From assembly GCA_026770705.1 (NCBI GenBank), contig JANJGN010000003.1, forward strand, positions 230,640,001 through 230,704,000: 64,000 nucleotides of DNA. Reading direction: 5' to 3'. Shown here piece by piece: positions 3,647 to 58,616 of the stretch (positions are counted from its first letter, which is position 1; every line of letters begins with the position of its first letter). Below the pieces are notes generated by a model, which made no database searches, was not told where the DNA came from, and was given only the letters and a program-made list of their open reading frames with translations. The position numbers and the translations under genes are program-made. The DNA is from Isurus oxyrinchus (Eukaryota).

Positions 3647-5968
3647 CTGGACAGGGAATATAGGGGTTGGAATGAGTTACTGATACTGCAGCGACACAGT
3701 TCCCAACACTTAACGTGACTTGAGTTAATTTGGACGGAGGGCTTGTTTTGTTTGCGACCCACCAATAGCAAACCTATATATATTGTGCCATGTCTAGTTG
3801 CCTTAAGGTCATTGAAAGTCAAACCCATCATGCGAGACCAACTTTAGGTGGCAGCTTCCTTTCCCTGAAGGACTTTCATCAACTAACTGAGTTTTTACAA
3901 TAGTCTGGCACATGTTATTAATTACTTTTCTGCTGCCACCTCAGGAGTTATTAGATTTATTGAATTCAGTTTTATTACTTGCCACCATGAAGTTTGAGTT
4001 CAAGTTGCTGCCACACTACCACAGCCACCAGGTTACCACATCCAACGACAGAGTCAGAAGAGATCTCACTGAAACATGTAAGCTTCTAAAGGGGGCCTGA
4101 CAGAGTAAATACTGAGAGGATGTTTCCCTTCGTGGGGGAATATAGAACAAGGGGACACAGTTTCAGAATAAGAGGGTCTTCCATTTAAGACGAAGATGAG
4201 GGGGATTTCCTTCTCTCAGAGGGTCATTAGTCTTTGGAATTCTCTTCCCCAGCGAGCAGTGGAGGCTGGATCATTGAATATGTTCAAGGCTGAGTTAGAC
4301 AGATTCTTGATTTGACAAGGAAGTCAAAGGTGACGGAGATAGGCAGGAAAGTGGAATTAAGATCAGCTATGATCTTATTGACCAGTGGAGCAAAGTTGAG
4401 GGACTGAATGGCCTACTCCTGCTCATTTCTTCTGTTCTTATGTAAAAATCCAATTGGATATTTCAGACTGTAAAGAATGGATTCTCCTCTGAGTTGGAAC
4501 ACTGGGAGATTTCTTTTTCGTGAGGTTCAGATCATGGGACAGCCTGGTAAAACCTGACTGAACTGAAAGCAATATCGACTGAAGAGAAGAACATCTTTGT
4601 TCATCTTTCAGTAAATGATCTCTCCTGTCTTCCTCCTCAACTGAAGGTGTTGGCCCCTTCAGGAATACAGTTCTCTGAGTGCTGGACTTTCTTATACTTC
4701 ATCCAAGTGGCCATTCTTGTTCTGTGCCAACCCAGCCGTCGATGCCCTGATTTTAAAATGGGGGAAGAGGGGTGGGGTGTTGTGAGTGAAACCTGAAGCA
4801 GTGATTAGGGGAGTGCCAGTGGTGGGGGCTGGTGGAAACCCAGATATGTGGAGGCCTGGCCTCATCTCCATAAACTCCCCCAGAGAGACCTGCCTGAACC
4901 CAGTTATGTCCTTTCTGCAGTACTGAGGGTGCAGTTCAGGAGGAATTTGTTGAGCGGAAACAGCAGCCGGGGACCCGTGGGAACAGTCACTGGCAGTTGG
5001 TTGGGTGGGTAGTAAGGTGGAGGGGGGAAGGGGCACCAGAGGTTATTGTGGGAAAGCCTTGGGCAATGTAGGCCCCAGGCTTCCATGTCAGGCCTGTACC
5101 AGAAGAGCACATTTTGACCACCAAGAATATCCAAATCAATGTTCCTCAACCCACTAGCCCCACATTCACATTTTCCAGTGCCTCCCCTTACAAGAATACT
5201 CTTGAAGGGGCAGGTAGAGGTCTCCAATCCTACATGACCAGCTGGCAAACACAGAAGCATGTTGTCCCAGCCATGATCTATCCAGCTGACTCCCATCAAG
5301 CTTCTACTAGGAACAAAAACAGAAAATGCTGGAAAACACTCAGCAAGTCTGGCAGCATCTGTGGAGGGAGCAACAAAGATAATGGCCCAGATCTTCTAGT
5401 CTCCCAATGGTCAGAGACCAGACGTACCCCAGAGGATGTGCTATGCGACCTCTTGGAAGTTCCAACACAAGTACTCTGTGAGAATTGCCCGGGAAGTTTC
5501 AACTTCCAATGGGCAAGCCCCCTGCATCCAGAACAAGTCTCCAACTCTGAGTTAGAGTCGGAGATTTTGGATGGTTCCGACTCGCTTACCTCTCTTCCTA
5601 GATAGTTATTCAGGAAATGTTAGATTGAAACAAAAACTCTATCTAACTCCTGGGTAATTATAAAACTGACCACCCCCCTAACTGTCCGCTGAGCACCTCC
5701 CCACCGCTGACCCTCTGACTCCACCTCTACCCTCTGAGAACCCTGACCCTCCGGCCCAACCGACTTTCTGACTCCCCCGCCAACCCTCCAACACCCACCC
5801 CGATAACTCCAACTCCCCAATGGGAGGATATCCTTTCTTACGTAAGGAGGCCAAAGCTGTCCACAGTACTCCAGGTGTGGTCTCACCAATGCCCCCATAC
5901 AGTTGTAGCAAGGCTTCCCGACGTTTATATTCCATCCACCCCCCCACCCCCCACCACCCCCCCATTAC

Positions 5969-6345: not shown

Positions 6346-8690
6346 AATAGTGCCAATTGATTGCTCTCAATATTCCTTGGAGAGAAACCTTGTGGCCCAG
6401 AGACTCCACTTTAAGGCAAAACCAATGCAAAAGGCCACAGAATTTCAAGCACAAATTGTGTTCAATGTAACGCCCATTGCGCGTGTTTTAAAAAATATCA
6501 TGCTGCAAGACAGCCCCGCCCCCTAAAAATGCCACGTCACCCCCAGCATGAATCAACCACCAGGACAGGTTCCTGCTATTTCCACTCACTCATTGTGGGC
6601 CCACAAGTCGGCTCCAAAAATTGAGCTGGTTCCTTTAAGCACAAAGACACTAACAGACACATTTTAAAAGCTTTTGAATATATATATTTTTTTTAACTTA
6701 AATTGACTAAGAAACTGAGCACACCAATCTAACTAGTCAGTGGTTCTGAATAATTTATTTTATTCAGTTATTTAAAATTGGGGTTACTCACAGATGGTGG
6801 GCTTGACATGCTGATTAATATGCTTAATTTTTTTACATTTTGATCTGCATTAATCAAAATTTACCAAGTTACCACTCTTAAGTATATATATATATTTTAA
6901 AATTACCATCTAAGATGCTGACCGATTGTGCTGGTGAGCAGCAGATTTTGCATTTGGCGATATACAGATGAGTTTAAAAGGAAAGGCGCTACATAAATGC
7001 AAGCCTTTCTTGTTGAAGGTTCTTACATGTCCTCCTGGAGAGTTTTGCGTAGGAGCCATGCAGCATTGTCATTATATCTCTTGGAGTTTCAATATTGAGG
7101 CAAACACATACAAAGGAAGAACCATTTGAAAGTATTCTGAAAATAATATTGGTCAGTGACTGGTCCTTTATTGAGGCTGCCTCGGTTTTACCCCTGACGC
7201 GTGACATTTCTTACTCGGGTGAGGCTGAGTCAGGGGAGGGGATGTCCGGCAATGTGACCTGGAGATCTGGAATCATTTCTCTTTGGGTGTGCCAACCAGC
7301 CATCAGTTAATTCCTCCTCCCTTCCTTCTGCCCATAAAATGACACATGGTCCTGGTGTCCCAGCCCCACAGCTGCCCTCCCCCAGTCCCTTCCCAAAATT
7401 TGCATCCCTGACTCGCTGCACGTCCCTCTGATGAATGCTAGCAGCTATTTGACTCTGGTGGGCATCGCAATTCTGTCCCTGCGCTTCCACAGCCGGGTGT
7501 GGTGGGGGGTGGGGGGGGGGGGGGCGGGCAGGTGAAGCTGGTTGTTGCCTTTCCCCATTACCACCACAGCGGAGGTCCACATAGACCCAGGGCTCGCTCC
7601 ATTGACCCCGAAGGTCTGTGCGGCCCTGTACTGTGCAACAGATTGGCAACAGATCACCACCACACTCCACTCTTCCTTGGAATGAATATCCACTCAGTGA
7701 CATTGTGTGTAGCACATAAATGCAACCAATGAGAGCTTGTATTGTGCTGATTAACTCCACAAAAACCCAGAGACATGAGCACATCGATCAAGGCTGACAC
7801 TCCAGTGCATTGCTGAGGGAGCACTGCACTGTCGGAGGTACAATTTTTCAGAAGAGAAGTTGAACCGAAGTCCCATCGCAGGGTCATGAGGACTTGAAAC
7901 GTCAACTCTTTTCTTCTCCGCCGATGCTGCCAGACCTGCTGAGTTTTGCCAGGTAATTCTGTTTTTGTTCTAAGTCAATGGATCCTGTTATAATCTCTTT
8001 TCTGCTATAGGTTCACTTATCCTTTCCTTGAAGTGTTCTATCTGTTTCATGGAGATTATATAAATTCATAATTGAGAACAAGTGATAGCATGATTACTAA
8101 TAATAAAAATGCAGTTCAGAGTGGCATGACCACAACCAGTACACATGTTAGTACAGTTTACAGATCAGATGAACATATTTGTCTGTAACGTATAGAGAGA
8201 CAAGAGAACTTTAAGCACAGGAGATCCTTCCACTGCCAATGAATTCCTATATAAATGTCCTGGTTTCATGAACAAACAGGTAGAGATGTGAAATTTTATC
8301 ACACGGTCCTTTGACAAGCATTTTCTGCATCAGTTTCAATTCTATTAAATCCCACATTTATTTCTCTACTCTCCCTCCTGTCCTGAAAATAATTGCTCCA
8401 CAGCCCCCTCTTCCCCCTCCTCAACTAGTCCCCTACTGAAGCTCGCATCTCTCACTTGCTGCGAGTCCCTGCGGTGAATGACTGCAGCTATTTGACTCTG
8501 GTGGGCATCGCAATTCTGTCCCTGGGCTGAAGTCAGCTGTTGCCTTTCTTGTTATTGCCTCAGCGGAGGTCAGCACAGACCCAGGGCTTGAGTCTGTCGA
8601 CCTCTGTGTGGGTCAGTAACTGTAACCAAGGCTGGGCAATGGAGGGAGCCTACACCTGCTCTAAGCAAAAGGACTAGATCACCGATGTAC

Positions 8691-9341: not shown

Positions 9342-10106
9342 TCTCAGACAATCGAGGACATAAAGTCTGAGGGGCAGATCTACTGAATCCAACTCGCGTA
9401 ACAGCAAGCTGCAAATCTGAATCTAAAAAAGGGGTCAATAAACTGGAGGGGCTCATTAAAGTGTAAGAGGGGCAAAGAAATGATTAGTGAAGGTCCTGTG
9501 AGTGATCGGGGTCTTAGAAGTGTCAAGATCCAGTGATAGACAACAAGGTCAGGGGGGATGGTTGAGGTGGATATGAATTAACTTGTAGCCATTATTTCTG
9601 AGGGAGCAGAACTGTACTGAGAAGTTGGGCAATCAGATGGAGGCAGGGAAGGAGTGATAAAATGCTACATAAATGCAAGTCTTTCTTTTCTAGGAACATA
9701 TAGAATGAGTAGACCATTCAGTCCCTCAAACCTGTTCTACCAGTTTTCAGTGAGATCAGGGTTGATCTAGGGACATAGGAGCAGGAGTAGGCCATTCAGC
9801 CCTTCGAGCCTGCTCCACCATTCAATTAGATCATGGCTGATCTGGTTTTGGTCTCAGTTCTGCTTTCTTGTCTGCCTCCCAAAACCCTTGGCTCCCTGGT
9901 CTATCAAAGAGCTGTCTAACTCTGCCTTGATTAAATTTAACGACCCAGCCTCCAATGCTTTCTGGAGAAGAGAATTCCAGGTAGTCCTCATCCCTGTCTT
10001 GAAAGGGGGACTTTTTATTCTTAAATTGTGTCCCCTCATTCTAATCTCCTCCACAAGTGGAAATATCCTCCCGGTATCCACTCCATCATGTCCCCTCAGG
10101 CTCTTA

Positions 10107-11513
10107 AACAAAAACAGAAATTGCTGGAAAAACTCAGCAGGTCTGACAGCATCTGTGGAGAGAGAGACAGAGTTAATGTTTCGGGTCCGTCTGACTCTTC
10201 ATCAGAACTAAAGAGAAGTAGAAATGTGGTGAAATATAAGCTGTTTAAAGGGGGTGGGACTGATGAAGCTGGATTGAAGGCCAGTGATGGGTGGAGGCAA
10301 AGGACAGATTGCAGAAGATGTCATAGACAAAAGGTCGAAGGGGTGTTGATGGTGGTGATACTGGCTAAAGGAGGTGCTAATGGTGACAGGGGTGGGGGGA
10401 GGGGACAGTGTGGGAGAAAAGATCAAAATAGACTAAAAGGTGGGGATAAAACAATGAATGGAAATAAATTTTTAAAATAATAATAGTAATAGGTGGGAAT
10501 ATATATATATAAAAATTAAAAAATAAATATTTGAAAAAAGGGGATCAAAAAGGGGTGATGATGGAGGAGAGAGTTCATGATCTGAAGTTGTTGAACTCAA
10601 TATTCAGTCCGGAAGGCTGTAAAGTGCCTAGTCGGAAGATGAGGTGCTGTTCCTCCAGTTTGCGTTGAGCTTCACTGGAACAATGCAGCAGGCCAAGGAT
10701 GGACATGTGGACATGAGAGCAGGATGGTGTGTTGAAATGGCAAGCGACAGGGAAGTCTGGGTAACACTTGCGGACAGACCGAAGGTGTTCTGCAAAGCGG
10801 TCGCCCAGTCTGCGTTTGGTCTCTCCAATGTAGAGGAAACCGCATTGGGAGCAGTGAATGCAGTAGACTAAATTGAGGGAAATGCAAGTGAAATGCTGCT
10901 TCACTTGAAAGGAGTGTTTGGGCCCTTGGACGGTGAGGAGGGGGGAAGTAAAGGGGCAGGTGTTGCACCTTCTGCAGTTGCATGGGAAGGTGCCGTGGGA
11001 GGGGGTTGAGGTGTAGGGGGTGGTGGAGGAGTGGACCAGGATGTCCCGGAGGGAACGATCCCTGCAGAATGCTGGCAGGGAAGATGAAGGGAAAATGTGT
11101 TTGGTGGTGGCATCATGCTGGAGTTGGCAGAAATGGCGGAGGATGATCCTTTGAATGCGGAGGCTGGTGGGGTGAAAAATGAGGACAAGGAGGACCCTAT
11201 CATTTTTCTGGGAGGGAGAGGAAGGTGTGAGGGCAGAGGCAGGGGAGATGGGTCGGACACAGTTGAGGGTCCTGTCAACCATCATGGGTGGGAAATCTCG
11301 ATTAAGGAAGAAGGAGGACATGTCAGAAGCACTGTTTTCGAAAGTGGCATCATCAGAACAGATGCGACGGAGGCGAAGGAACTGAGAGAATGGGATGGAG
11401 TCCTTACAGGAAGTGGGGTGTGAGGAGCTGTAGTCGAGGCAGCTGTGGGAGTCGGTGGGTTTGTAATGGATATTGGTGGACAGTCTATCACCAGAAATTG
11501 AGACAGGGAGATC
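10107..11513 (-). mobile_element. Penelope-like retroelement (Neptune-like), 5'-truncated: RT thumb, Cys linker, GIY-YIG endonuclease and 3' region with hammerhead motif
   Basis: ORF ..STNIHYKPTDSHSCLDYSSSHP..KDSIPFSQFLRLRRICS..CNCRRCNTC..NLVYCIHCSQCGFLYIGETKRRLGDRFAEH... Target duplication tcccctcagg(c/a)tctta at 10091-10106 and 11514-11529, inside a CR1. Confidence 0.9.
10171..10209 (-). ncRNA. Minimal type I hammerhead ribozyme motif in the Neptune-like 3' region
   Basis: Minus strand reads agtt-CTGATGA-agagtc-agac-ggaccc-GAAA-catt-aact. Other copies show GAAACGTC (7896) or AAAACGTT (1145-1152), implying consensus GAAACGTY. Confidence 0.6.
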
Positions 11514-20850: not shown

Positions 20851-22574
20851 TGACTCTTGTCTGGCAAAATTCTCTGGATTTCAGATTCAAAATGATCAAT
20901 TGAGCTCCAGCATCCACTAGTTTCTGGGGGAGAGACTTCCACACCTCTACCCACCCTTTTGCATGAAGAAGTGTTTCCTGACATCTCTCCTGGAAGGCTT
21001 GGCTCTCATTTTAAGCTGACATCCCCTTGTTCTAGAGTCCCCCACCAGTGGAAAGGTTGCCTCTCTATTTACCCTATCAAATACTTCCAAACCTCTACAA
21101 TCCTCATCCTTATGAATGTGGCAACATGAACAGACTTTTGGCATCAAGTAAATCTAATCTTGCCAACACCCAAAATCCACACCACACTCCCCCACAAGGG
21201 TCCCTGGACAGCAATCAGGAGTTAGTAACCTCGGGCAGGACTACGCCCACCCTGATCGAAGGCACTGAGATTAATTCCTGAAATTGGTAGGGTTAGACCA
21301 GACCAGGAATCAAACTTACAAAAACTGTTCATCTCTAACAAAATCTTACTGCACAGAAGGGGGGCATTCGGCCCATCGTTCCTGGGCTGGGTCTTTGAAA
21401 GAGCTGCCTAGTTTCATTCCCGTCCCCTGCTTTCTCCCCACATCCTTGCAAGTTAATTCTGATGAAATAACCTGAACTTTAAACCTGAAACATTAACTCC
21501 GTTTCTCTCCCCACAGATGCTGCTTTACCTGCTGACTGTGTCCAACATTTCATTGGTTTTATTCCAAACTAGGGGTTTTTCTGTGATCTGTTTTGGTTTA
21601 TTCAGGGTGGAGAAATGTCGCTTGTAAACCGTCTATTGAAAATATTTGTTCTAAACAGTCTACTGCAATAGCTGGATCTTTGCACACGTTATTACACTTG
21701 CAAGCATTCAACCCCCAGAAACCCCTTCCCAAATTAGTTTCGCCACTAAAAGGGTCTTGTCTTAAAGGTCCCAAATATTTTGAGTGCTATTGTTAGCCCA
21801 GAGAGGATTTGATGGGGGCGTGACACCGAGTCATTCCAGCTGTGGAGTGCAGGCAGTGGGCTCTGGAATGTTCGAGAAAAGTATCCGCCTGTTTTTCCAA
21901 CAGCTGCATACCACTGGTTCTCAGCCAACTTGAGATGTGGCACCTCTTCTGTAACAGAAAGTGAGGAGCAAAGCAATAAAATGGATGTTCTGATTACTTC
22001 AGTCTGTTCTTACATGACTGTAATGCCCAGCCTCCGCAGGCCATAAAATTTCATTTCCTGTAAAGAAAAGAGTTCTGTTTAAGAATAAATCAATTGTTTG
22101 TGAGCAAATTTCACCTGCCGCCCCCCCACCCCCCACCTTGCAGAATCACCTTGATCGGTGTGATAGAATATCTTGTAACTATCTTTTATACCTTGTAACT
22201 GTGTGCCCTGTCCTGTCTGGGAAACAAGATTAGTCTGCAGTCATGTGGAATTATGTAACTAGACTCTTTGACACCCACATTTTAAAAGGTAAGTTTGACC
22301 GGGTAGTTCATGTCTCTCCGCACCCCACCCCAGCCCAACCAAGTTTTTTTTTAACTCCTGAGTTTGTTTCACTCTCTAATCCTCCCCCCCATCATTTTCT
22401 TCAGCTGGTCTGCAGAGGTCATAGCTTGACTGAAAGAATGGATCAAGCGCCCTCCACTTAGATTTCTGCCACTTCCCAAGTGTCACTTGGTGGGGCTGAC
22501 CCTCCAAGAGGGTTCTTTCCTTCCAAAAGGGAAGGCACGCACCTTCATCTTCCTGTTCCGCCAAAGTTGTGGTG

Positions 22575-42625: not shown

Positions 42626-43297
42626 CACTGTGATATACCTAAATTGCCTTTGTAACCTCTTATTTATTTTGTCAATTAACCCTGTTGTTACTAATTTTAA
42701 AACAGTTTGTACAAATAAAAGGGCGGCCGACTTAAATGCTGCCAGTTTGTAAGCATGGCTATATCAGAGAAAATCAGCTAAACACAGAGAGGAAGGTATA
42801 GGTTATTCTGATAGGGTAAGATGAAGCAGGGAGTGAACAACCAATCCTTGGCTTTGTGATTTGAAGTTTCTCTTGACAATTTAACAAAACAAAGCCAGTT
42901 AATTAATTCAATCAGTAGTTTGTGCTGATCCTGATGGGGGTCAATAGCGTAATGCAAACATAATCCCAAATGGGTGATGCAAGAAAATTCAAATGCCAAA
43001 TTTAAACCAAATTAACTTGCAGACATAAAACTGGGTGGCAAACCATGGGAGACAATGTAATGGTGGTGTCACTGGACTAATAATCCAGAAGCCCAGGCTA
43101 ATGCTGTCAGGACAGGTGTTCAAATCCCACCATGGTAGCTGGTGGAATTTAAATTCAATTAATAAATCTGAAATTGAAAGCTAGTTTCATGGTCATAATT
43201 ACTGAGACTATCATTGAATGTTCACCAAATTCCTTCAGCGAAGGAAATCTGCTGCTCTTACCTGGTCTGGCTTACATGTGACTACAGACTGACAGCA

Positions 43298-44984
43298 CAG
43301 TTTCACTTCCTCCAGATAAAAGGTGTGGCTATGGGTACCCGCATGGGCCCCAGTTATGCCTGTCTCTTTATGAGGTATGTGGAACATTCCTTGTTCCAGT
43401 CCTACTCAGGCTCCCTCCCACAACTCTTTCTCCGGTACATCAATGACTGCATCGGTGCTGCTTCATGTTCTCATCTGGACCTGGATAAATTTATTAATTT
43501 TGCTTATAGTTTCCACCCTTACATCATTTTCACATGGTCCATCACTGACACTTCCCTTCCTTTCCTTGACCTCTCTGTCTCACTTTCTGGTGATAGACTG
43601 TCCACCAATATCCATTACAAGCCTACCAACTCCCACAGCTACCTCGTCTACAGCTCCTCACACCCCGCTACCTGTAAGGACTCCATCCCATTCTCTCAGT
43701 TCCTTCGCCTCTGATCTGATGATGCTACCTTCAAAAACAGTTCCTCTGACATGTCTTCCTTCTTCCTTAACCGAGCTTTTCCACCCACGGTGGTTGACAG
43801 GGCCCTCAACCGTGTCCGGCCCATCTCCCGCGCATTGGCCCTCACGCCTTCTCCTCGCTCCCAGAAACATGATAGGGTCCCCCTTGTCCTCACTTATCAC
43901 CCCACCAGCCTCCGCATTCAAAGGATCATCCTCCGCCATTTCCGCCAACTCCAGCATCATGCCACAGCCAAACAAATCTTCCGTTCACCCACCTGGCGGC
44001 ATTCCGCAGGGATCGTTCCCTCCGGGACACCCTGGTCCACTCCATCACCCCCTATACCTCAATCTCTTCCCACGGCACCTTCCCATGCGACCGCAGAAGG
44101 TGCAACACCTGCCCCATTACTTCCTCTCTCCTCACTTTTTTAAGGGCCCAAACACTCCTTTCAAGTGAAGAAGCATTTCACTTGCACTTCCCTCAATTTA
44201 GTCTACTGCATTCACTGCTCCCAATGCGGTTTCCTCTACATGGGAGAGACCAAATGCAGACTGGGTGACCGCTTTGCGGAACACCTTCGGTCTGTCCGCA
44301 AGCATGACCCAGACCTCCCTGTCACTTGCTATTTCAACACACCACCCTGCTCTCGTGCCCACATGTTTGTTCTTGGCCTGCTGCAATGGTCCAGTGAAGC
44401 TCAACGCAAACTGGAGGAACAGCACCTCATCTTCCGACTAGGCACTTTACAGCCTTCCGGACTGAATATTGAGTTCAACAACTTCAGATCATGAACTCTT
44501 TCATCCATCCCCACTCCCTTTCCGATCACCCCTTTTCCAATAATTTATCGTTTTTAATTTTAATATATATTTTTCTTTTCCCACCTATTTCCATTATTTT
44601 TAAATATATTTCCATCCATTGTTTTATCTCTAACTTTTAGCCTTTTTCGATTCCTTCACCCCACCCCCACTTGGGCTATCACTTGCTCATCTTGCTTTCT
44701 ACCCTTAATGTCACCATTAGCACATTCCTTAGATAATATCACCACCTCTTTGTCCTTCTGTCTGTAACATCTTTGGCAATTTCTTCTCTGCCTCCACCTA
44801 TCACTGGCCCTTTATCTAGCTTCACCTGTCCCACCCCCCTCTCCCAGCTTATATTTCACCTCATTTCTATATTTCTTAGTTCTGATGAAGAGTCATACGG
44901 ACTCAAGACATTGACTGTATTCCTCTCTGCAGATGTTGTCAGACCTGAGTTTTTCCAGCTATTTTTATTTTTGTTATTTTTTTT
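43298..44984 (+). mobile_element. Penelope-like element (same family as 10107-11513), frameshifted, inserted in a SINE
   Basis: QIKGVAMGTRMGPSYACLFM..FLRYIND (RT core) and GIY-YIG NLVYCIHCSQCGFLYMGET. TSD ctgacagca at 43289-43297 and 44985-44993. Confidence 0.9.
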
Positions 44985-45383
44985 CTGACAGCAATGTGGT
45001 TGCCTCTTAACCGCCTTGTGGAATGGCCCAGCAAGCCACTCAGTTCAAGGGCAGTTAGGAATCGGCAACAAATGTTGGCCCTTCCTCGTGATGCCCACAT
45101 CTCAGGGAAGAATAAAAAAAAACCCAGATGAGAGTTACGGTAAACTGGTTAAGGATTAGTATGGTGCCCTTGATGAATATTTTTATATTCTATGAATATA
45201 ATCATTCTTCAGATGATTCCAGCAGGTTTTGATTACATTCCAAAAATACAGCAAAAATCACATTGCGTATTACAAGTGCGATTATGTTTAATAATAACTG
45301 GTAACTCAAAGTGCAGAAGGTTACTTCTGCACATGCTAATGGCAAGTTGCTTAAGGCCCAAGTACACGAAACCAATTCCTTAC

Positions 45384-47939: not shown

Positions 47940-49275
47940 CTAACGAGCAAAGACACATTTAAAATAACTCATCAACATGGTGTGCAGATGCGATGAAAAT
48001 ACTGAATTTGTTTCATAAGTCAACTTGCTAATTTAAAAAGTGAGAGAGCTTCAGCTGATCCCAATTTTCATTTTAGTCTCACTTGGCAGTGAAACAAACC
48101 AACAATGGAAAGTGCTCCACTATTACCATCCAGTGGTTTATTCGTGGAATTACAATTCACATATGTGCACTGTATAATGCAAGCACTGTTTAATTCTTCC
48201 AAATCCTTTAAGCCATTATCCGACAACTTGTATTAATACACAGTGCCTTTGACAGAACAAAAAGGTGCTTCACAGGAACATTTGACACCGATCCACATAA
48301 GAACATATTAGGACCGATTAACCAAAAGCTTGGTTAAAGAGATGGAGAGGCATCTTAAAAGGAGAGGGAAGGGTACAGAGATGGAGAGTTTTAGAGGGAA
48401 TTCCAGAGCTTAGGGTCTTGGCAACTGAAGACACAACTGCTAACGGTGAAGCAATTCAAATCCAGGATGCTCAAGGGGCCAGATGTGGAGGAGTGCAGTT
48501 ATCTCACAGTGTTTTGGAGCTGGAGGAGATTAGGGAGAGGCAAGGCCACGGGTGAATTTGAAAACAAGCTTGCAATTTTTAAAAATTGAGGTACTGCTTA
48601 GCCGGGAGCTAATACAGGTCAGTGAGCAGTAGGATGATAGGGGAACAGGATTTGGTAGGAGTTAGAGCATTAGCAGCAGAGCTTTGGATGGCCTCAAGAT
48701 TACAGATGCTGCAAGATGGGAAGCTGGCCAGGAGTGTATCCGAATAAAGAAGTCTAGTGGCAACAAATCATTGTACATGGATGAGGGCATTTTTTTCTCC
48801 CTCTCCTGCTTCTCCCATTTTTTCAGACAGCTCCTTGCAGAATCGTTATAGCGTAGGAGGCCATTCAGCCCATTGTCTCTGCACCAGCTCTGTGAAATAG
48901 CAATTCATTAGTGCCATTCTCCTGCCTTCTCCCCATGACCCTGCAAATTCTTCCTTTTCAAATAACATTCTAATTTCCTTTTGAATGCTTTGATCGAACC
49001 TGCCTCCACAACACTCACAGGCAGAGCATTCCATTTCACTTGTTGTGTGAAAAAGTTTTTCCTCATGTCCCTTTTGCTCATCTTGCCAATTACTTCAAAA
49101 CTCTGCCCTCTCGTCCCAATCACTTCATGAGTGGAAATAGTTTCTTTCCCATCTGCTCTTTCCAGACCGTTGATGATTTCCAATACAAATTAAGTGGATT
49201 ATTATGGTGTTTGTTCAAGGTCTAGCACCAACCTCCCTTTATCCCTTTCAAACTTTTACTTGAGGTGCATCTTAC

Positions 49276-49370
49276 CAGTCCACAAAAAATTCTAAAAAGC
49301 CTTCATTTGGTCTCTCCAGTTTGGGTGTGCCCATTTCAGCTTTAACACCCACCAGAATATCCGTGTGACC
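49276..49370 (-). CDS. EXOSC7: EXOSC7 exon 3
   Basis: ttcacag|GHTDILVGVKAEMGTPKLERPNEGFLEFFVD(C)|gtaag; 95 bp. Confidence 0.96.
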
Positions 49371-49525
49371 CTGTGAAAATACACATTGATAAACAGGTTA
49401 GTTACTTCCCCAGTAAATCAACTCTGATGGTCATATTAAGGAGTATCAATAGGGCCTAGTAACAATTAACCAATGTGATTAACATACTTAACTCTTAATC
49501 CAACTCATTTTGGTCAATCTTCTTG

Positions 49526-50294
49526 TTCAACTTGGGGGTAGGCTTGGCCTAAATAGCCAAGTGGTTATGTTACTGGGTTTGTAACCCTAAGATCAAGAGT
49601 TCAAATCTCACAATGGCAAACAATGTAACTTCATCTGAAACAGATGGAAATGGGTTTGTACTCAAAAAAAGAGTTACAGCCAAATATCCTTTGGCTTGGC
49701 CTAAATAGCCAAGTGGTTATGGTACTGGGTTTGTAACCCCAAGATTGAGAGTTCAAATCTCACAATGGCAAACTATGAAACAATGTAACTTCATCTGAAA
49801 CAGATGGAAAATGGGTTTGTGCCGGGCTTGGCCTAAATAGCCAAGTGGTTATGGTACTGGGTTTGTAACCCCAAGATTGAGAGTTCAAATCTCACAATGG
49901 CAAACTATGAAACAATGTAACTTCATCTGAAACAGATGGAAACGGGTTTGTGCTCGAAAGAGTATCAAGAGTTCAACTTGGGGGTAGGCTTGGCCTAAAT
50001 AGCCAAGTGGTTATGGTACTGGGTTTGTAACCCCAAGATCAAAAGTTCAAATCTCACAATGGCAAACTATGAAACAATGTAACTTCATCTGAAACAGATG
50101 GAAATGGGTTTGTACTCGAAAGAGTTTCAACTTGGGGGTAGGCTTGGCCTAAATAGCCAAGTGGTCATGGTACTGGGTTTGTAACCCCAAGATCCAAGAG
50201 TTCAAATCTCACAATGGCAAACGATCAAACAATGTAACTTCATCTGAAACAGATGGAAACGTGTTTGTACTCAAAAGAGTTTCAACTTGGGGGT
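49526..50294 (+). repeat. Tandem array of five tRNA-derived SINE-like units (~135 bp each) in EXOSC7 intron 2
   Basis: Units start at 49541, 49693, 49825, 49987 and 50141 (GGCTTGGCCTAAATAGCCAAGTGG). Each has A-box TAGCCAAGTGG, a B-box-like AGTTCAAATC and a 3' hairpin CATCTG-AAA-CAGATG. The array is flanked by TTCAACTTGGGGGT at 49526-49539 and 50281-50294. Confidence 0.9.
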
Positions 50295-53200
50295 GCTGGA
50301 ATCATCAGTAGACTGCAGGAGCGTCATACCTGATACTTCAGCTTGTCTCAGTGCATCTTCAGTAATGACTTCTCCAGTGAAGATGCTCAGCTAAGGACCA
50401 CAATGCAGTCCCTACTGTTTAGCTACCAGCCAGTCACAGATGAGTCAAAATCTTCTCCAATTTAACAATAGCAAGTCCAAAAGCACATGAGTCAGCTCCT
50501 TCCAAAAAAAAAAAACCCTGCACCCTGGTCCTGGACTTTATCAGCCTTCTCTGACTACTTGCTCAAGCTGACCCCAACATGTGTAAACAAGTATCTGTCC
50601 TCTTTTACCCCCAAAATAAACCTCAGGCTGGCAAAATAAATGACCTATTTCCACTACCATAACTTTGCCTGCCTCTAGCTCATCTTAATCCACGAAGATT
50701 AAAATACCCTTTTGTCAAATGGCAGCTTAGCTCGCACCTCAGATTCAGAATGCTACAGGTTTATTTCAAGAACCCTTGAAAGTATGACACTCAGACACTT
50801 TACACACACTTTTTTGAGAGCAAATATTTATTTTCTAATATGCCGAAACGTGCTCGATGGTGGTGGAGTTTACTTCATGCATTCTGCCTCACCCCTCAAC
50901 CAGTTCCTGCCTCATTGCAGGTTCTTATTTGATTCAAATCCATACAGGAACCCAGGAAAGTTTAATTTAACCAGCTGCCAGCCTGTAAAGGTTACTCCTG
51001 CTAACCACTGAAACCATAATGTTCACATTCATGAACGGATCTTTCCTAATGCAGTGTGTGAAAAGTGCTTTGCCCAATGAATTAAGCGTTGAAATGTAAT
51101 GGCTGTTACATAAACAAACGCAAACCTAAAGTAAATCCCAGGGGTGAGTTCAACATTGTGTGTCCAACACAGGCACAGTGAGCCGAATGGCCTCCTTCTA
51201 TGCTACATCATTCTATGCCTGACTCTGGCCAAGTTTTTAAAAAAAAACTATAACCGCATCAAAGCTTAGAATAATGCTGACCAAATTAACAGAGTGTGAG
51301 ATGGATGCTGGTCACAGACTAAGGTTGGTACCTTCAGCTACAGCCCACTAACACTGGACCCATTCCAACATTGAAAAACATACATTTCACGAGTCAGAGG
51401 GAACGTCTTGGAGTTTATTTTTTAAAAAGACCAAACTGATTTCAACAAGCTCCTGTATATGATACTGAATAAACAATACGCTTATCTATTTATATTACGT
51501 TGACAGGATTTTAATTTCTAAACTTGCTTCCTAGCAGACCTCCAAAGTTTTATCAATATTTGGTGAGATGGAAAGTTAAATCATTCTCAAGGTTGTTTGC
51601 TTTAGCCTTGCTAATACAAATGAAACCTGCACTATGTATAGACAGCAACAGGCACTGTAAACACTACTTCAAATATTTAAAGCAGATTTTTATAACAGCA
51701 TATTTCTGAAATTAGATTTATGCTTTGGTATCAGCCCAATCTCTTTTGTTTAAATAACACAGACCTTGGAGTTTGTGCTGCTTTTTCTGTGGCTCGTGGC
51801 AACCAATGTGTCTCACTCTTTTCTTCATTCTTGCTCACAAGAAGTAACAATTATGTTTAAAAACCACTGAATTTGCAACATACAGAATTGTGAAACAAAC
51901 TCATATTTAATGCACAGCAAGGCAAGGACATGCAAGACAGAGTTCCTACAAACTAAGCCCATGTGGCACCCTGGAACGCAATCAAAAGCAGGACATTTAC
52001 TCAAAGCAGCACAGGGTTAGGTCTATCCTCACTGTCAAAGCTGAACGAAGGAACTGTTTTAATTGGATGGTTTCAATGTGGTTGCACGGTTGTAAAGGAA
52101 AGCTATTTTGATCATCATTTTCTCCAGCATCCAACTGAAGAAGCCAATTGTTATTAAGTTTGCACATGCAGGGTTTACTCTGCTGTGCTCATACAAGGAA
52201 CGACTATAGCTCTATGTAACAGAATGATCTGTATCGTAAAAGAATCTGTACACAGTCATTCTTCTAGCTGCTTTAACGTGGTTCCTGAAAATTGTAATCC
52301 GGGGAACAGTGTTGGGTGGAACTTGCATCACTGGCATCAAGTACAGCATACTTGAAGGCAAGATGAACCACTTCTGTTAAGGTGGTTTGATACCACCACT
52401 TTCATATGAGAGAGATAAGTTTATAATGGGATGTCTAGATTGATTATCCATTCAATGGAATCCTGAGATGTCAAGTGGAGAAATGAGGTGCCCCCTGCAA
52501 TGGATCTTACTGGTCAGGTTGATGGGATGTGTACTATGGTCTGGGGCTTGTGGTGTACTTTTGGTGAGCGAAAATGCCATTCAGGGAAGATTTTGCCCCC
52601 TCTGATATGAGCAATTGGAGACAGTTCTTCAGCATGAAAAACATGCCTTCACTACTTCTTCCTCCTGGACTTAATTTCCACAACAATAGCTGTCTGAATA
52701 AAATATCTGATAAACAGTCCATGTGTATACTCAGCAAAGTCCTGCTTACGTGAGATGCTACAAGGATATGTCTAAAAGCTCTTCAAAAGGGACTAGGATC
52801 AACTCAACTCACAGGACCAGGAGTAGGCCATTCAGTCCCTTGAACCTGTTCAGACATTCAATGAAATCATGGCTGATCGGTGACCTATCTCCATATGCCT
52901 GTCATTGTCCAAGTTCTCTTCACTACATGGACATCCATTGGCCAGACGTATAGGGTTGCTGTTAATCTTTGTCTGCTGATCCACTACCTCAGCACACTTT
53001 TGCATTAAAACAGAACGCAGATGGGCAAACTGATTATATCCACACTTACAGCTCATTGCTAATTCACAGCTTTGTTGGAAATATTCCTCTGGCTAAGATT
53101 TCTCTTGCCGCAGCCTCTGAGCCAAGCCAACAGACAGATTCGCATCTTTCACAAATAAGCGTCAAGCGACTATATCGCTTAAGGGAACCCACCCACTAGG

Positions 53201-57849: not shown

Positions 57850-58616
57850 ATTTGTAAATTGAATCTTTATTCTCTTAAGCATTTTATTCTTTTCTCAATT
57901 ATTCATTAAAATGGGCTTGAGTGTAGTCCTGAGGTTGACTCAAGTAGCCACAACAGGATAGAAGCTGCTCCAATTCTCAATATTCAAAAGAATCATGATG
58001 AATAAGATGGGCTCTTAACTTGGCCTTAATTCTTTAAATTCATTCTTGGTATGAGTGCCACTGGCTAGGCCAGCGTTTATTGCTCATCTCCAATTGCACT
58101 GGAGAAGGCGGCAGCGAACCACCTTCTTGAACTCCTACAGTTTTGTGCAGTGTAGGTCCACCCACAGTGCACTTTTCTGTAATGACTTTGTACAACTGAG
58201 TAGCACGCTAGGCCATTTCAGAGAGCAGTTAAGAGTCAACCACATTGGTTTTAGCTTAAATATGAGAAGATGAACAATGGACAAAGAGGGGGCTTTGATG
58301 GGTCCGGAGTCACATATAGGCCAGGCCAGGTAAGGGTAGCAGATTGCCTTCCTGTAGTTCAACTATAATAGGTCACTAATGTTTTATTTTCACCATCCCT
58401 AGTGTTAAATTCAAGCATCAGAACATTTGGACCTTCCAGTCTGAAATATATAGCGAAACAATATATATTATATATATTCCGATTGAAATAGGAGTGTATT
58501 TTTTTTCTTAATAAAAATGACACTTTTTTTGTAGTTTTGTTCATCCCTGTAGGCTGGGAGAGTTTGAAAGCCCCCATGCTCTCTACTATTCTGCTAGAGA
58601 TCTCCATGGACAGCCC

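Follow-up and report, generated by a model that had tools for sequence, protein, structure and literature searches.

The five-unit array at 49526-50294 of the window (the whole 64,000-nucleotide stretch of Isurus oxyrinchus DNA analysed here) is real, follows a family-wide pattern, and owes its structure to retrotransposition, not to expansion of a satellite. Its family is a young 139-bp tRNA-derived SINE with thousands of stacks in the genome, among which the window array is typical. We consider it quite probable that such an array is a stack of unlike SINE copies, which a Tx1 LINE wrote in several rounds of target-primed reverse transcription. A first-pass annotation of the same DNA had rightly argued that a simple SINE insertion does not account for the array.

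The five units lie head to tail on the plus strand, with starts at 49541, 49693, 49825, 49987 and 50141; five units had been counted before, at about 135 bp each, whereas full units measure 139-140 bp, with 134 bp for unit 1 and 130 bp for unit 2. The 14-mer TTCAACTTGGGGGT, the target-site duplication (TSD), had been described as flanking the array and recurring at junctions 3/4 and 4/5, and we located four exact copies (starts 49526, 49972, 50126 and 50281). TSD copy 1 (49526-49539) is followed by an extra A at 49540 and by unit 1 (49541-49674), a tRNA-derived head plus tail whose 8-nt deletion and CCCTAAG and CTCAAAA variants are common to a candidate source copy on contig C7 (L038). Within this unit, at 49592-49603, lies the 12-mer ATCAAGAGTTCA of the B-box arm (SINE positions 52-63), the site adjoining the Tx1 LINE. 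The foreign linker already noticed at junction 1/2 occupies 49675-49692 (18 nt, beginning TAC-AGCC) and is a putative Pol III read-through tail of L038, cut at TTTT. Unit 2 (49693-49822) is clipped at position 130 and joined via CG (49823-49824) to unit 3 (49825-49963), which agrees with the earlier description of junction 2/3 as a direct fusion to a 3′-clipped unit. Unit 3 belongs to the GATTGAGAG/GTGCTC subfamily and has an exact twin on contig C16; the variants that units 2 and 3 share, once thought private to them, are family variants: of the 151 regions fetched, 31 contain GATTGAGAG heads, 48 such heads in all. After unit 3 comes a second copy of the 12-mer (49964-49975), which overlaps TSD copy 2 (49972-49985, extra A at 49986) through TTCA and matches the right junction of a related organism (organism B). 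The first reading had correctly seen ATCAAGAG before the second 14-mer but had overlooked that the Tx1 target site within the SINE begins with this sequence; its presence at junction 3/4 is best read as a second, nested target duplication. Unit 4 (49987-50125) is full length and matches a copy on contig C1 (L002) at 100% identity, with a predicted 8-bp hairpin at 50084-50102 and a predicted terminal ACTC-GAAA-GAGT hairpin at 50114-50125. TSD copy 3 (50126-50139, extra A at 50140) precedes unit 5 (50141-50280), which carries variants unique in the genome and is missing from the right junction of organism B, and TSD copy 4, again the exact 14-mer, forms the right end (50281-50294). As had been noted, TTTT is absent from the plus strand within the array; the first downstream occurrence, at 50603-50606, is where Pol III transcription begun within the array is predicted to terminate. 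Elsewhere in the window, older dispersed repeats matching the flanks of loci on contig C1 lie at 1075-1509, 5313-5383, 7890-7968, 10102-10182, 21486-21550, 43047-43297, 44923-45045 and 58187-58353.

An assembly artefact is exceedingly improbable, for although no long read spanning the array was found and the matching short-read contigs (one run, same organism) cover its outer junctions and none the whole array, they match both of those junctions exactly, the units are distinct from each other, and the same junction types recur across the genome.

The tRNA origin of the head is evident from the Rfam tRNA model RF00005, which units 2 and 3 match over positions 1-71 of 71 at 30 bits (gathering threshold 29); unit 5 scores 20.4 bits. 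As noted earlier, TGT occupies the anticodon position, the label 'Thr' being read from the genetic code rather than from comparison with a real tRNA-Thr gene. ARAGORN found no tRNA gene in the array, an Rfam scan of 48500-51500 returned tRNA only and no ribozyme families, and no ORF of at least 80 aa overlaps the array. The 3′ part of the SINE contains the CATCTG-AAA-CAGATG hairpin as claimed, and its predicted structure comprises an 8-bp hairpin within a longer helix plus the terminal ACTC-GAAA-GAGT hairpin (z -2.48, with 3 of 200 shuffles scoring as well). At five loci (L057, L059, L066, L069 and L070), tails that follow a LINE end have five extra bases in the hairpin loop; because this tail variant keeps the stem intact, it suggests that the stem rather than the loop is what may be recognised.

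Searching the 5.0-Gb genome for exact motifs, we counted 15,568 heads, 17,714 tails and 7,077 tail-plus-ATCAAGAGTTCA junctions, and none of these motifs occurred in reversed controls. With a tRNA-derived head bearing A and B boxes, and copies that are dispersed, numerous, non-coding and TSD-flanked, the family belongs to the SINE2 class. For our locus sample we took all clusters formed by the first 100 tail matches (contig C1, 0-19.3 Mb), which gave 53 loci, 11 of them with a single module; monomers made up 9 of the 52 loci with a pattern-matching tail. Long arrays are more readily detected, and once this is allowed for by weighting the share of monomers is about 0.29; approximately 70% of the sampled loci carry several modules. 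Arrays reach 20-30 modules. TSDs are locus-specific, measure 13-16 bp in 38 of the 43 arrays with a called TSD, and begin with T-A-C-A (33, 31, 31 and 29 of 37 at the successive positions). A clear right end is present at 43 loci, of which 21 contain at least two heads and 11 repeat their own TSD internally, 7 of these at locus-specific sites and 4 in a Harbinger site where the spacer could equally be a read-through tail. Spacers match the TSD of their own locus, and the expectation that each array would have its own locus-specific spacer held. One independent array (C1:452100-452549) has a design like that of the window, with a TSD beginning TTCAA and a tail-less head joined through a TTCAA match. 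At C1:10540527, C1:12657842 and L027, tail mutations that create an internal T-run recur as 3′-clipped modules ending at positions 117-126.

Local DNA duplication would be a rival route, a monomer growing into a satellite through slippage, through rolling circle or when TSDs undergo unequal exchange. Such duplication has been proposed for clam arrays in the relevant part of PMC11481361, it would suit the TSD-(SINE-TSD)n layout, and exact block duplications at the DNA level do exist in some long arrays (C10, C14 and C1:18.09 Mb). As the main route, however, it is refuted by neighbour distances equal to those of random pairs: in the C1 sample, tails of TSD-separated neighbours differ by a mean of 5.4 changes (n=19) and directly abutting tails by 5.3 (n=58), compared with 5.6 for random pairs of tails from different loci (n=581). 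None of the 19 TSD-separated pairs and none of the 58 abutting ones are identical, and the earlier suggestion of rolling circle or TSD-driven expansion into a satellite is, as the main route, not supported. The homogeneous units that characterise a SINE-derived satellite formed by local amplification are not what these arrays contain. In the window, units 3, 4 and 5 differ mutually by 5-9 changes (units 3 and 4 by 5); exact twins of both unit 3 and unit 4 exist on other contigs, the use of unit 4 as a search query having favoured the finding of its twin, and the variants of unit 5 occur nowhere else in the genome, so that the window units trace to separate lineages. Foreign tails, U6 and LINE pieces inside the arrays also count against duplication, which we regard as very unlikely. 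Because adjacent units resemble one another no more than copies taken from separate chromosomes do, satellite-type duplication is not the main route, and the units of an array evidently come from various parts of the genome.

The linkers between units point to RNA ends. The sequence at junction 1/2 recurs at other loci, as had been anticipated, with 26 matches on 10 contigs, several within duplicated blocks; 23 of them stop at TTT and pass after 0-3 (once about 8) extra bases into a new head, 2 are joined to a cut LINE, and the last, the monomer L038, continues as TTTT into unique DNA. L038 and unit 1 share CCCTAAG, the 8-nt deletion and CTCAAAA. It also has about five changes of its own relative to its presumed offspring and a TSD match of only 10 of 14, and in 6 of the 26 copies the preceding tail is without one or more of its variants; L038 is therefore a candidate for the source of this linker, or a relative of the source. 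A second linker behaves alike, with 6 of its 7 matches cut at T3-T6 and joined to a head and 1 continuing as T6 into unique DNA. Altogether, 37 of 90 distinct non-TSD linker sequences end in at least three T (30 of 83 without the 7 variants of the first linker, which had itself been searched for), whereas the figure is 2 of 32 for TSD spacers and 203 of 2320 for random stretches. Whole U6 snRNAs also lie between units, two of them at L070 (219-325 and 2975-3081), and one precedes a head at L129 (1359-1463). One of the linkers in L190 holds a tRNA-like piece (2640-2697). From these sequences we infer that the linkers are read-through tails of Pol III RNAs ended at T-runs, and that end-to-end template jumps across Pol III transcripts would build such junctions. 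The relevant passages of PMC6895275 describe how the R2 and L1 reverse transcriptases jump end to end from one template to another, and those of PMC4494074 mention U6-L1 chimeras. Template jumping and re-insertion, both on the original list of options, were rightly named as contributors.

The likely enzyme was found in the gaps of several arrays, which encode the ends of a LINE ORF2. An intact copy on contig C26 is 6,991 bp long; its ORF1 frame has 714 codons, and its APE-RT ORF2, of 1,296 aa, has a protein match to Xenopus Tx1 ORF2 that is 50% identical over its length; two ORFs, an ORF2 with APE endonuclease and reverse transcriptase, and a closest protein match to Tx1 place it in the Tx1 clade. 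We counted 282 exact 5′ ends of this LINE. The first 30, from 18 loci, all come after ATCAAGAGTTCA or a form of it with no more than two changes (SINE positions 52-63). Among the best 30 matches to the LINE 3′ end, 28 abut the B-box 12-mer: 26 run into the SINE tail from position 52 onward, so that this 3′ end is common to the SINE and its partner, and 2 run into the 12-mer and another LINE; the other 2 run into ATCA and other DNA. The LINE is thus placed in the B box of the SINE, with a copy of the 12-mer on either side, and it has the SINE 3′ half as its tail. Likewise, where a tail directly follows a tail it starts at position 52 in 309 of 310 cases, a count in which only later starts could have shown, the tail reference having been split at that position. 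The 3′ end appears to have been captured by the LINE from the SINE, and the shared tail, shared junctions and co-occurrence make it likely that this 7-kb LINE mobilises the SINE. No unusual fold was seen in the LINE's own 3′ end (z 0.05). At C1:1836437-1838057 and C1:15630128, arrays hold related but different Tx1-like 3′ end pieces that end in the SINE-like CTCATAAGAGT, possibly an older partner.

The Tx1 partner prefers repeated targets, with a second recurring site besides the 12-mer. This site (L221-L232, position 1501-1526) lies at the end of the Myb frame of an old Harbinger-like repeat with DDE_Tnp_4 and Myb-like frames, whose copies are 70-80% alike; the first ten bases of the LINE match the TSD there, and 345 exact copies of the site are empty. 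The bases that follow a tail depend on the tail variant: GTGCTC tails continue with AT in 184 cases vs T in 16, and GTACTC tails in 89 vs 419. Because the tail variant predicts the following bases, also at unique ATCA sites, the RNA past the GAGT end may pair with the primer, and such RNA-DNA pairing could account for much of the target specificity. The link of GTGCTC with ATCA further shows that part of the tail repetition was inherited from multimer source RNAs.

One could turn this relationship around and regard the SINE as an internal-deletion product of a tRNA-headed LINE, reduced to head, 12-bp repeat and tail, instead of as the LINE's target. Head-LINE-tail units do exist: nine of them, each of about 7.3 kb, stand in tandem at C2:61.83-61.89 Mb (L130-L138), separated from each other by the locus-specific outer TSD and by a short stretch in which the SINE end is repeated. 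The uninterrupted SINE, however, matches the full tRNA model across the 12-mer, and the LINE splits the B box. Moreover, of the 30 LINE 5′ ends examined only 11, from 3 loci, follow a SINE head, whereas 19 follow a SINE tail (11) or another LINE (8). We therefore consider a deletion origin unlikely, and keep to insertion of the LINE into the SINE.

Organism B gives a view of the history of the locus. In its sequencing runs, in which about 0.6 of the words are present, one run has the same left junction (TSD-A-head, to 49564), and in four runs from four samples the place of unit 5 at the right TSD is taken by a head that stops at position 59 and ends in CCAAGATCAAGAG, the sequence that stands before TSD copy 2 in the window. 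Because of this tail-less head at the right junction, the array must have changed since the split from organism B. In the simplest reading, a tail-less 59-nt head would first have been primed on TTCAA, completing the 12-mer and giving the right-junction state of organism B; a three-RNA chain (unit 3, then clipped unit 2, then unit 1 with its tail) would next have entered the 12-mer of that head; and units 4 and 5 would have been inserted last, at the TSD. Alternatively, units 4-5 may have been lost in organism B.

More generally, under our preferred reading of repeated insertion by the Tx1 LINE, a SINE without a terminator would be transcribed by Pol III into its flank as far as the next T-run. 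Reverse transcription would start at the GAGT end or at an internal match, where the next RNA bases (TACA, ATCA or TTCAA) would pair with the nicked target, and at the 5′ end of one RNA the enzyme would often switch to a further Pol III RNA by way of its U-rich 3′ end, as at junctions 1/2 and 2/3. Every copy would supply fresh target, so that later insertions could use two kinds of site: the B-box 12-mer (tail repeats, LINE insertions and junction 3/4) and TSD copies already in place (junctions 3/4 and 4/5). No clear age gradient was seen along the arrays: a difference in age between first and last tails had p=0.04 raw and p=0.24 after restriction to pattern-matching tails as an ascertainment control, and neither monomers vs last tails (p=0.22) nor TSD mismatch vs module number (p=0.19) showed one.

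A variant of this reading, which is possible though doubtful, departs from it only in the origin of the TSD-separated units. Here an unligated cDNA end would prime again after the 14-nt overhang had been copied, the reverse transcriptase would alternate between RNAs and overhang to produce TSD-unit-TSD-unit within one reaction, and organism B would later have lost units 4 and 5 by recombination between TSDs. All three TSD-head junctions of the window carry an extra AG, found at 3 of 37 outer junctions in the background, and fully independent insertions would rarely give the same AG three times; re-insertion before an existing TSD-head junction, on the other hand, would copy the AG as well. The left and inner spacers at C1:1917811 share the same shortened 9-nt form, and the 345 exact preferred Harbinger sites are empty, yet the poor site in the window has four TSD copies, both as serial priming would have it. 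Against it stand the right junction of organism B without units 4 and 5, which calls for a precise 14-bp deletion, and the unique variants of unit 5, whereas units 3 and 4 have exact twins. Somewhat speculatively, the Tx1 enzyme might both farm its own landing sites by spreading a SINE that carries its target and alternate between the overhang and many Pol III RNAs within a single integration; if so, each array would be a record of the source loci transcribed in one germ cell.

Stacking of unlike copies by separate insertions, our main reading, would offer a route to tandem arrays without recombination. Natural examples number in the thousands, and every joint in them preserves one step of reverse transcription: priming on a match of 4-5 bases, a jump to an RNA 3′ end, or a return to the target. 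Carried-over tails point to active SINE source copies, which are usually hard to find. With a young, intact Tx1 ORF2 that jumps frequently and at a defined site, the second half of LINE integration, which is still little understood, becomes open to experiment. As a passenger, the SINE would spread landing sites for its own carrier, a feedback loop in which the LINE's target is likely moved by the LINE itself.

The closest parallel is the crocodilian SINEU with Tx1-Mar and Tx1-9_AMi, for which the relevant passages of Kojima 2015 (PMC4494074) describe SINEs mobilised by Tx1, tandem SINEU-3 copies that sandwich a TSD, with sequential insertion given as the cause, one Tx1 family that prefers Harbinger transposons, and template-switch additions at 5′ ends. 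The Tx1 mobiliser, the tandem SINEs around a TSD and the Harbinger preference are alike in both systems; unlike SINEU as presented there, our family has a tRNA-derived head, the main LINE site lies inside the SINE, the LINE has the SINE tail, and arrays of 20-30 modules mix RNAs from traceable source loci. The blood clam arrays of Martelossi 2024 (PMC11481361) have, in the sections that deal with them, TSD-(SINE-TSD)n and TSD-(SINE)n-TSD layouts, with about 3% of copies in arrays, highly similar units, and unequal recombination as the proposed cause. The outer layout with a TSD between units is the same here, whereas in our family most loci are arrays, units are unrelated, and the joints bear signatures of retrotransposition. 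Template jumping by R2 and L1, as covered in the pertinent parts of PMC6895275 and PMC4494074, gives occasional one-jump chimeras or in-vitro products, whereas chains of jumps are a routine genomic product here. Xenopus Tx1L, the closest named ORF2 (50%), inserts into Tx1D, a repeated non-autonomous element that is, by the account in PMC4494074, a DNA transposon not moved by the LINE, whereas the target element here appears to be moved by it. Multimers of the Dip and B2 SINEs are head-to-tail and comprise up to half of all copies (up to eight units in Dip), as stated in the relevant passages of PMC8466645, where these SINEs are A-tailed and the mechanism is left open; the satellites derived from SINEs in squamates are, in the corresponding part of PMC10702118, homogenised satellites made of SINE parts. 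In the literature searched, no paper on this SINE family came up, nor any on a LINE targeting the SINE that it moves, and the main text of PMC13343379 does not mention Tx1, tandem or tRNA. Each ingredient of the system has a precedent; the combination, at such a scale and with traceable partner, target and source loci, is new.
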